Assembly (NCBI RefSeq): GCF_002854065.1
Contig: NZ_CP024147.1
Direction: 5' to 3' (one strand)
DNA: 64,000 nucleotides
DNA from: Escherichia coli
GTDB taxonomy: Bacteria > Pseudomonadota > Gammaproteobacteria > Enterobacterales > Enterobacteriaceae
Part shown: one piece after another, positions 32,233 through 33,201 of the stretch
How positions within the stretch are numbered: the stretch's first letter is position 1
How the letters are laid out: every line of letters begins with the position of its first letter
Translations under genes and position numbers: made by a program
The notes under the pieces: model-generated
Told to the model about the DNA's origin: nothing
The model's database searches: none
Seen by the model: only the letters and a program-made list of their open reading frames with translations

Positions 32233-32344
32233 GTAAACTCCACCTATAGACAAGCGCAACCAGACAATTACCGTGAAATTGAGCGACATGGTGATGCTGC
32301 CAACTTACTGATTTAGTGTATGATGGTGTTTTTGAGGTGCTCCA

Positions 32345-32620
32345 GTGGCTTCTGTTTCTATCAGCTGTCCCTCCTGTTCAGCTACTGACGGGGTGGTGCG
32401 TAACGGCAAAAGCACCGCCGGACATCAGCGCTATCTCTGCTCTCACTGCCGTAAAACATGGCAACTGCAGTTCACTTACACCGCTTCTCAACCCGGTACG
32501 CACCAGAAAATCATTGATATGGCCATGAATGGCGTTGGATGCCGGGCAACTGCCCGCATTATGGGCGTTGGCCTCAACACGATTTTACGTCACTTAAAAA
32601 ACTCAGGCCGCAGTCGGTAA
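32345..32620 (+). CDS. insA: IS1 protein InsA
   Basis: 91-aa ORF, (M)[42 protein letters not shown]...; GTG start. Confidence 0.95.
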
Positions 32621-33042
32621 CCTCGCGCATACAGCCGGGCAGTGACGTCATCGTCTGCGCGGAAATGGACGAACAGTGGGGCTATGTCGGGGCTAAATCG
32701 CGCCAGCGCTGGCTGTTTTACGCGTATGACAGTCTCCGGAAGACGGTTGTTGCGCACGTATTCGGTGAACGCACTATGGCGACGCTGGGGCGTCTTATGA
32801 GCCTGCTGTCACCCTTTGACGTGGTGATATGGATGACGGATGGCTGGCCGCTGTATGAATCCCGCCTGAAGGGAAAGCTGCACGTAATCAGCAAGCGATA
32901 TACGCAGCGAATTGAGCGGCATAACCTGAATCTGAGGCAGCACCTGGCACGGCTGGGACGGAAGTCGCTGTCGTTCTCAAAATCGGTGGAGCTGCATGAC
33001 AAAGTCATCGGGCATTATCTGAACATAAAACACTATCAATAA
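32539..33042 (+). CDS. insB: IS1 InsB frame (transposase made as an InsAB' fusion by -1 frameshifting)
   Basis: 167-aa ORF overlapping the insA 3' end; A6C slippery motif (ttaaaaaactc) in the overlap. Confidence 0.9.
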
Positions 33043-33201
33043 GTTGGAGTCATTACCGAGCGACATTTCTGGCGATAATTAGCAGTTGGTGTAATATTAA
33101 AAATCCTGCGATGCCGGCAAAATGCCTCAAAATTTTGCCAAATGCAAAGCCTAAATAAGAAAAAATATAAAAATTTCAATATTTACGTCTAATATTAGTT
33201 T

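Follow-up and report, generated by a model that had tools for sequence, protein, structure and literature searches.

The window analysed here, a 64-kb stretch of Escherichia coli DNA, contains the divergent genes ais (pmrG) and arnB (Table 1). The coordinates of ais were set by identity to the RefSeq annotation of E. coli CUWW06. Its GTG start codon is at position 32232, with a Shine–Dalgarno sequence, GGTGGAG, just upstream. The ATG start codon of arnB is at position 33317. When uninterrupted, the spacer between the two genes is 307 bp in length. In the window, the spacer is split by a complete copy of IS1. The initial annotation placed this element upstream of both genes, and that placement is correct. 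Its distances require revision: IS1 is 57 bp, rather than ~50 bp, from the ais GTG, and 259 bp, rather than ~240 bp, from the arnB ATG (250 bp if the target duplication is left out of the count).

An in-frame ATG on the minus strand (32289–32287) is found within the target site duplication (TSD), abutting IS1, and extends the ais open reading frame to 219 amino acids. We discounted this codon as the start of ais. No Shine–Dalgarno sequence accompanies it, in-frame conservation of the stretch between genera is lacking, and the codon is probably unused.

Table 1. Features of the ais–arnB locus in the window. Strand is given where assigned.
Feature	Position	Strand	Details
ais (pmrG), LPS core heptose(II)-phosphate phosphatase, intact, 200 aa	31630–32232	−	Identical to CUWW06 CDS WP_001625543.1 region; NF011945, 392 bits
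Native DNA left between ais start and TSD	32233–32280	−	57 bp together with TSD; conserved between genera only at the Shine–Dalgarno sequence
TSD, left copy, 9 bp, GAGCGACAT	32281–32289		Abuts IS1 left end
Complete IS1 (IS1A type), 768 bp	32290–33057	+	100% identity over 768 bp to annotated IS1A copies
IRL, left terminal inverted repeat, GGTGATGCTGCCAACTTACTGAT, ais side	32290–32312	+	Single copy in window
insA, 91 aa, GTG start	32345–32620	+	Open reading frame list; NF033558 positions 1–81 and IS1/IS1595 Zn domain
insB reading frame	32539–33042	+	NF033558 positions 75–199, 143.7 bits
A6C programmed −1 frameshift site, TTAAAAAAC	32594–32602	+	Yields InsAB' transposase, 232 aa, 32345–33042
IRR, right terminal inverted repeat, GGTAATGACTCCAACTTATTGAT on minus strand, arnB side	33035–33057	−	
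TSD, right copy, 9 bp, GAGCGACAT	33058–33066		Abuts IS1 right end
Invariant block AAAATGCC (GGCATTTT in ais sense)	33119–33126	−	17 taxa: Escherichia, Salmonella, Citrobacter, Intestinirhabdus
PmrA (BasR) box, CTTAAGgttaaGTTAAT (CTTAAG-gttaa-GTTAAT)	33202–33218	+	Kept on arnB side
Candidate arnB −10 hexamer, TAAAAT, 10 nt past PmrA box	33229–33234	+	Inferred from spacer alignment
arnB, first gene of arnBCADTEF, intact	33317–34456	+	ATG start

The inserted element is an intact IS1A

Members of the IS1 family are ~768 bp in length, have imperfect terminal inverted repeats of ~23 bp, join insA to insB' by a −1 frameshift at an A6C motif, and duplicate 8–9 bp of target, typically 9 bp. We looked for each of these properties, and for identity to a reference element, and found all of them. 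Over its full 768 bp the inserted sequence is 100% identical to copies, from many E. coli chromosomes, that are labelled 'IS1-like element IS1A family transposase'. The left and right repeats are 23 nt each and are complementary at 18 of the 23 positions (78%). On the plus strand the right end reads ATCAATAAGTTGGAGTCATTACC, an imperfect inverted copy of the left end. Each terminus occurs once in the window, where none is expected by chance.

The insA and insB frames are both open. The N-terminal part of the NCBIfam model NF033558 (IS1 family transposase) was matched by InsA and the C-terminal part by InsB. The arrangement of the two frames matches the 698-nt coding sequence annotated with a 'programmed frameshift' in relatives. 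The transposase frame is directed at arnB, and the end carrying IRL and the insA promoter is beside ais. Taken together, the intact reading frames, the intact ends and the signature of recent insertion suggest that this copy is functional and able to transpose. A complete 768-bp IS1 with insA, insB and both terminal inverted repeats had been described in the initial annotation; the coordinates, the repeats and the IS1A identity all agree with that description. We also noted a terminator-like hairpin on the minus strand within IS1 (32430–32416). This was dismissed as a meaningful terminator, since one such hairpin is within the chance expectation of 1.4.

IS1A has inserted recently

The 9-bp direct repeat said to flank IS1 is exact and adjoins both ends of the element. 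Thus, the interval 32281–33066 consists of TSD, IS1 and TSD, with nothing left over. The probability that two fixed positions share a 9-mer by chance is 4^−9 (~4e-6). Removal of IS1 and one TSD copy (32290–33066) in silico generated a sequence that matched E. coli CUWW06 exactly, at 994 of 994 bp. In CUWW06 the ais–arnB spacer is uninterrupted and GAGCGACAT is present as a single copy. Hence, comparison with an uninterrupted ais–arnB region, run here against CUWW06, recovered the exact empty site, and the de novo transposition proposed earlier is borne out by the target duplication together with this site in the closest relative.

CUWW06 is collinear with the window over ~63 kb and differs from it by 14 SNPs. 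The left flank (22000–32289) is 100.0% identical to strains CUWW06 and 100416, and the segment from 33058 to 64000 has 7 mismatches, and no gaps, with respect to CUWW06. Since so close a relative has the empty site, the insertion must be recent. We conclude that IS1A transposed recently into the ais–arnB divergent control region and duplicated the 9-bp target GAGCGACAT. An assembly artefact, in which an IS1 copy was collapsed or misplaced into the locus and no real insertion occurred, has a negligible likelihood. IS1 is multicopy, being carried by 4,970 of 5,426 complete E. coli genomes at a median of 11 places per genome, and is able to confuse short-read assemblers. However, misassembly would make no duplication, and here a perfect 9-bp TSD is found at both ends, with an exact reconstructed empty site.

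At 19607–19615 the window has an empty target site within an intact MFS transporter gene; in CUWW06 this gene is disrupted by an IS1B at that site. This IS1B is absent from the window, and the IS1A of the window is absent from CUWW06. Thus, the two near-clonal genomes differ by reciprocal IS1 insertions. Elsewhere, yfaL (minus strand) carries a 28-bp tandem duplication, CATTAGCGATGTTATTGCGAAACACGGC (12867–12894 and 12895–12922), that is absent from CUWW06. The duplication splits this YfaL/EhaC autotransporter adhesin gene into open reading frames of 173 (13399–12878) and 1127 (13020–9637) amino acids. Hence, yfaL is a strain-specific pseudogene. The gyrA gene (6000–8627, minus strand) encodes wild-type Ser83 and Asp87, and so is free of a quinolone-resistance substitution at both positions.

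Strongly conserved elements of the spacer are all on the arnB side of IS1

A scan for Ais in species-representative genomes returned 18 loci, from Escherichia spp., Salmonella enterica subsp. arizonae and diarizonae, several Citrobacter and Intestinirhabdus. For phylogenetic footprinting we used a spacer alignment and an anchored comparison of 17 taxa. Only two non-coding blocks of the spacer, the PmrA box and the AAAATGCC block, are strongly conserved, and each is found at or beyond position 33119, between IS1 and arnB.

The PmrA box has one mismatch to YTTAAK-N5-YTTAAK and is the sole match in the spacer with two or fewer mismatches. Its TTAA cores are palindromic, and for this reason the minus strand also scores, with the near-box ATTAAC-ttaac-CTTAAG. 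The box is contained in the conserved block TTCTTAAGGTTAAGTTAATATTC (33200–33222), and is itself almost invariant in Escherichia, Salmonella and Citrobacter and nearly so over the 17 taxa. Hence, the PmrA-box-like repeat reported near 33202, on the arnB side, is real and conserved, and it lies 144 bp from the end of IS1. A hexamer of the form TAnnnT, 10 nt downstream of the box, is kept in all aligned taxa, and we infer that TAAAAT is the arnB −10 element. PmrA boxes comprise two hexamers, 5 nt apart, that replace or overlap the −35 position (PMC10570014). The PmrA box over the −35 position, with TAnnnT 10 nt further on, fits this description. PmrA binding, and PmrA-dependent transcription, are supported for E. 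coli pbgP and pmrG (PMC3140997). The arnB promoter region, the arn operon and pmrD are intact at the base level when compared with CUWW06, and the promoter region is identical.

As for the second block, a conserved TTTGC precedes GGCATTTT by 17 nt in the ais sense, and in the window forms part of TTGCAT at 33147–33142. The resulting TTGCAT-17-CATTTT arrangement may be the ais core promoter, with a transcription start near 33112, or the site of a regulator not yet described. Between the AAAATGCC block and the PmrA box the distance is only ever 75, 65 or 54 nt across taxa; between the block and the ais start codon it is 80 to 121 nt. The three discrete classes of spacing to the box hint at a phase-locked coupling of the two elements, and are only suggestive. 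In a secondary and more speculative reading, the GGCATTTT block could be a helical-phase-dependent control element of the divergent promoters that has not been described before.

A conserved AAATAT-like hexamer, resembling a −10 element, is positioned 17 nt from the CTTAAG half-site in the ais sense. In the reconstructed empty allele, all σ70-like sites in the ais sense are at or beyond 33075. One of the candidates considered, TAGACG-16-TATATT (33191–33164), was rejected as a conserved ais promoter; its −10 falls in an A/T tract of variable length that is absent from Salmonella and several Citrobacter. A search of the spacer against Rfam gave no match. In other parts of the window, two Rfam families scored above their gathering thresholds: naRNA4, a REP-derived nucleoid-associated RNA, between nrdA and nrdB (16437–16507, minus strand), and the nuoG RNA motif (63150–63192, minus strand).

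We then considered the DNA left beside ais. No match to YTTAAK-N5-YTTAAK, with two or fewer mismatches, was present in 32233–32289. Promoter scans were made with a threshold of 9/12, and also of 7/12 with at least 3/6 in each hexamer. In the inserted allele, no σ70-like site of 7/12 or better was detected between IS1 and ais. The initial annotation had considered the case of an ais promoter and its PmrA box both lying within the ~50 bp next to the gene; neither was found in the 57 bp. This segment could contain a promoter so divergent that consensus scans would miss it. No ais/pmrG transcription start, and no PmrA footprint at pmrG, was found in the literature searched by full text. The separation of ais from its upstream elements, as first proposed, is supported by the location of both conserved blocks on the arnB side. 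The IS1 site is downstream, in the ais direction, of all conserved non-coding elements of the spacer, and most likely falls either within the 5' leader of ais or between its promoter and the gene.

Predicted effects on ais and arnB expression

The ais/pmrG gene is activated by PmrA in E. coli (PMC3140997). In the window, an intact IS1 stands between ais and the PmrA box, together with all of the conserved upstream DNA. PmrA-dependent ais transcripts would have to cross 768 bp of IS1 in the direction antisense to insAB. Classical genetics established that IS1 insertions are polar in both orientations, by means of rho-dependent termination. Since ais transcription would be subject both to antisense crossing of the element and to this polarity, induction of ais by Fe3+ or low Mg2+ should be largely lost.

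An insertion sequence can also supply a promoter, by pairing an outward −35 at its end with a −10 of good consensus match in the flank, 16–18 nt away. Known effects of IS1 insertions include the activation of acrEF and bgl, and Prentki and co-workers reportedly described the creation of hybrid promoters by IS1 in 1986. Hence, ais could still be expressed from an IS1–flank hybrid promoter, or by read-out from IS1, in which case expression would be low, constitutive and PmrA-independent rather than silent. The junction beside ais does contain a candidate. An outward-facing TTGGCA in IRL (32303–32298) matches TTGACA at 5/6 positions, and is followed, after 16 nt, by CAATTT in the flanking DNA (32281–32276), which retains A2 and T6 of a −10 element. 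However, the −10 match is only 2/6. With a total of 7/12 the pair is below the 9/12 scan, and it falls under both scan thresholds; no other outward site was detected in 32225–32450. We regard IS1-driven expression of ais as doubtful. Any residual ais transcription would be at most weak and constitutive, from the poor TTGGCA-16-CAATTT hybrid.

On the other side of the element, nothing has changed in the PmrA box, the −10 element, the leader or the 144 bp that precede the box. Hence, PmrA control of arnBCADTEF should persist. We weighed the opposing case, in which IS1 changes expression of arnBCADTEF, and with it polymyxin susceptibility, by insAB read-through, by an IRR hybrid promoter or by displacement of upstream silencing DNA. 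IS1 is oriented toward arnB, with insAB co-directional, and the spacer is AT-rich. The arnB-side junction provides TTACCG (33053–33058) and, 15 nt later, GATAAT (33074–33079). This pair scores 8/12, which is below the 9/12 scan, and its spacing of 15–16 nt is suboptimal. Furthermore, transcription from the IS1 promoter PIRL is weak and subject to autorepression. The PmrA box, −10 element and leader are identical to those of CUWW06, and the second conserved block is also on the arnB side. Altered expression of arnBCADTEF is thus improbable, and any effect of IS1 on arnB, weak insAB read-through included, appears unlikely from the sequence.

The most likely outcome, as predicted from the arrangement of the locus, is that ais has been uncoupled from PmrA control and that arnB regulation is intact. 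We put the probability of the whole explanation, in which a recent IS1A insertion has caused PmrA-dependent induction of ais to be largely lost while PmrA control of arnBCADTEF persists, at about 0.75.

Biological significance

The stated role of PmrG/Ais is to dephosphorylate heptose II. In PmrA-constitutive E. coli, deletion of pmrG leaves polymyxin B resistance in place (PMC8129183). Hence, the phenotype of the insertion is probably mild, and effects on Fe3+/Al3+ tolerance are more likely. If our interpretation is true, Ais/PmrG is no longer induced in this strain along with the other members of the PmrA regulon, and the arn operon stays under PmrA control. Nature would then have dissected, on a small scale, the control of LPS modification. 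The IS1 junction is also a convenient strain-specific marker. A more ambitious interpretation is that the PmrA regulon has been rewired under selection. Core dephosphorylation by Ais would be removed, modification with L-Ara4N would be kept or mildly raised through an IRR hybrid promoter, and repeated IS1 hits in nudI–ais–arnB of other lineages would reflect the same selection. We consider such selection highly improbable.

Comparison with other IS1 insertions

We queried 5,426 complete E. coli genomes with a sequence spanning both flanks and the element. IS1 was at the identical site in none of them, and a 26-nt junction probe found no match in metagenome contigs. IS1 near the locus was found with the same query in 8 of the genomes, and strain MB06232 is a ninth. 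All distinct cases were inspected and each is a separate event from the insertion in the window. IS1 is within ais in strains LR9-2 and 1532MA/WA, within nudI in strain 1EC213, within the PmrA box in strain 266917_2, and within arnB, with a rearrangement, in the DH10B-type strains NEB10-beta and GB2005. Altogether, 9 of the 5,426 genomes have IS1 within ~2 kb, by ~6 independent events. A rough expectation for uniform insertion is ~24 genomes (~11 chromosomal IS1 per genome × 2 kb / 5 Mb × 5,426). With 9 genomes against ~24 expected there is no sign of enrichment, and the ais–arnB locus is not an evident IS1 hotspot.

Classical polar IS1 insertions, in gal and lac, and the activation of bgl and acrEF by IS1 or IS2, resemble the present case in having the element between promoter and gene or just upstream. 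Two outcomes are known from such cases: polarity, with silencing, or IS-dependent activation. The sequence of the window, in which no good outward promoter is apparent, would favour polarity on ais and no effect on arnB.

Like the window, the DH10B family (NEB10-beta, GB2005) and MB06232 have IS1A at the arn locus. Unlike the window, where the insertion is simple and nothing has been lost, these copies are not flanked by a TSD and adjoin unrelated DNA. In the DH10B type (NEB10-beta, locus L003, 2128–2895), IS1 is inside arnB and its far side is joined to the elaD region. In MB06232 (locus L026, 2501–3268), IS1 accompanies a deletion of nudI–ais and of the entire arnB promoter, and the IS1 end is 9 bp ahead of the GGAAAAGCAATG start region.

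The closest parallel is E. coli 266917_2 (NZ_CP026723.1), which has IS1 in the same spacer, in the same orientation and with a 9-bp TSD (locus L001, 1936–2721). It differs in being an independent event, 136 bp nearer arnB in terms of the uninterrupted spacer, and in carrying a different IS1 variant (98.6% overall identity). In 266917_2 the TSD, CTTAAGGTT, coincides with the first half-site of the PmrA box itself (equivalent to window positions 33202–33210). Only the arnB side regains a complete PmrA box, and ais is cut off from it, as in the window.

With respect to the IS1A/IS1 family of E. coli K-12 and its relatives, the element in the window has the same length (768 bp), the same sequence, 23-bp inverted repeats, the A6C frameshift and a 9-bp TSD. 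The only difference is chromosomal location. Thus, novelty is confined to the site of insertion, and the element itself is an ordinary strain-specific IS polymorphism.
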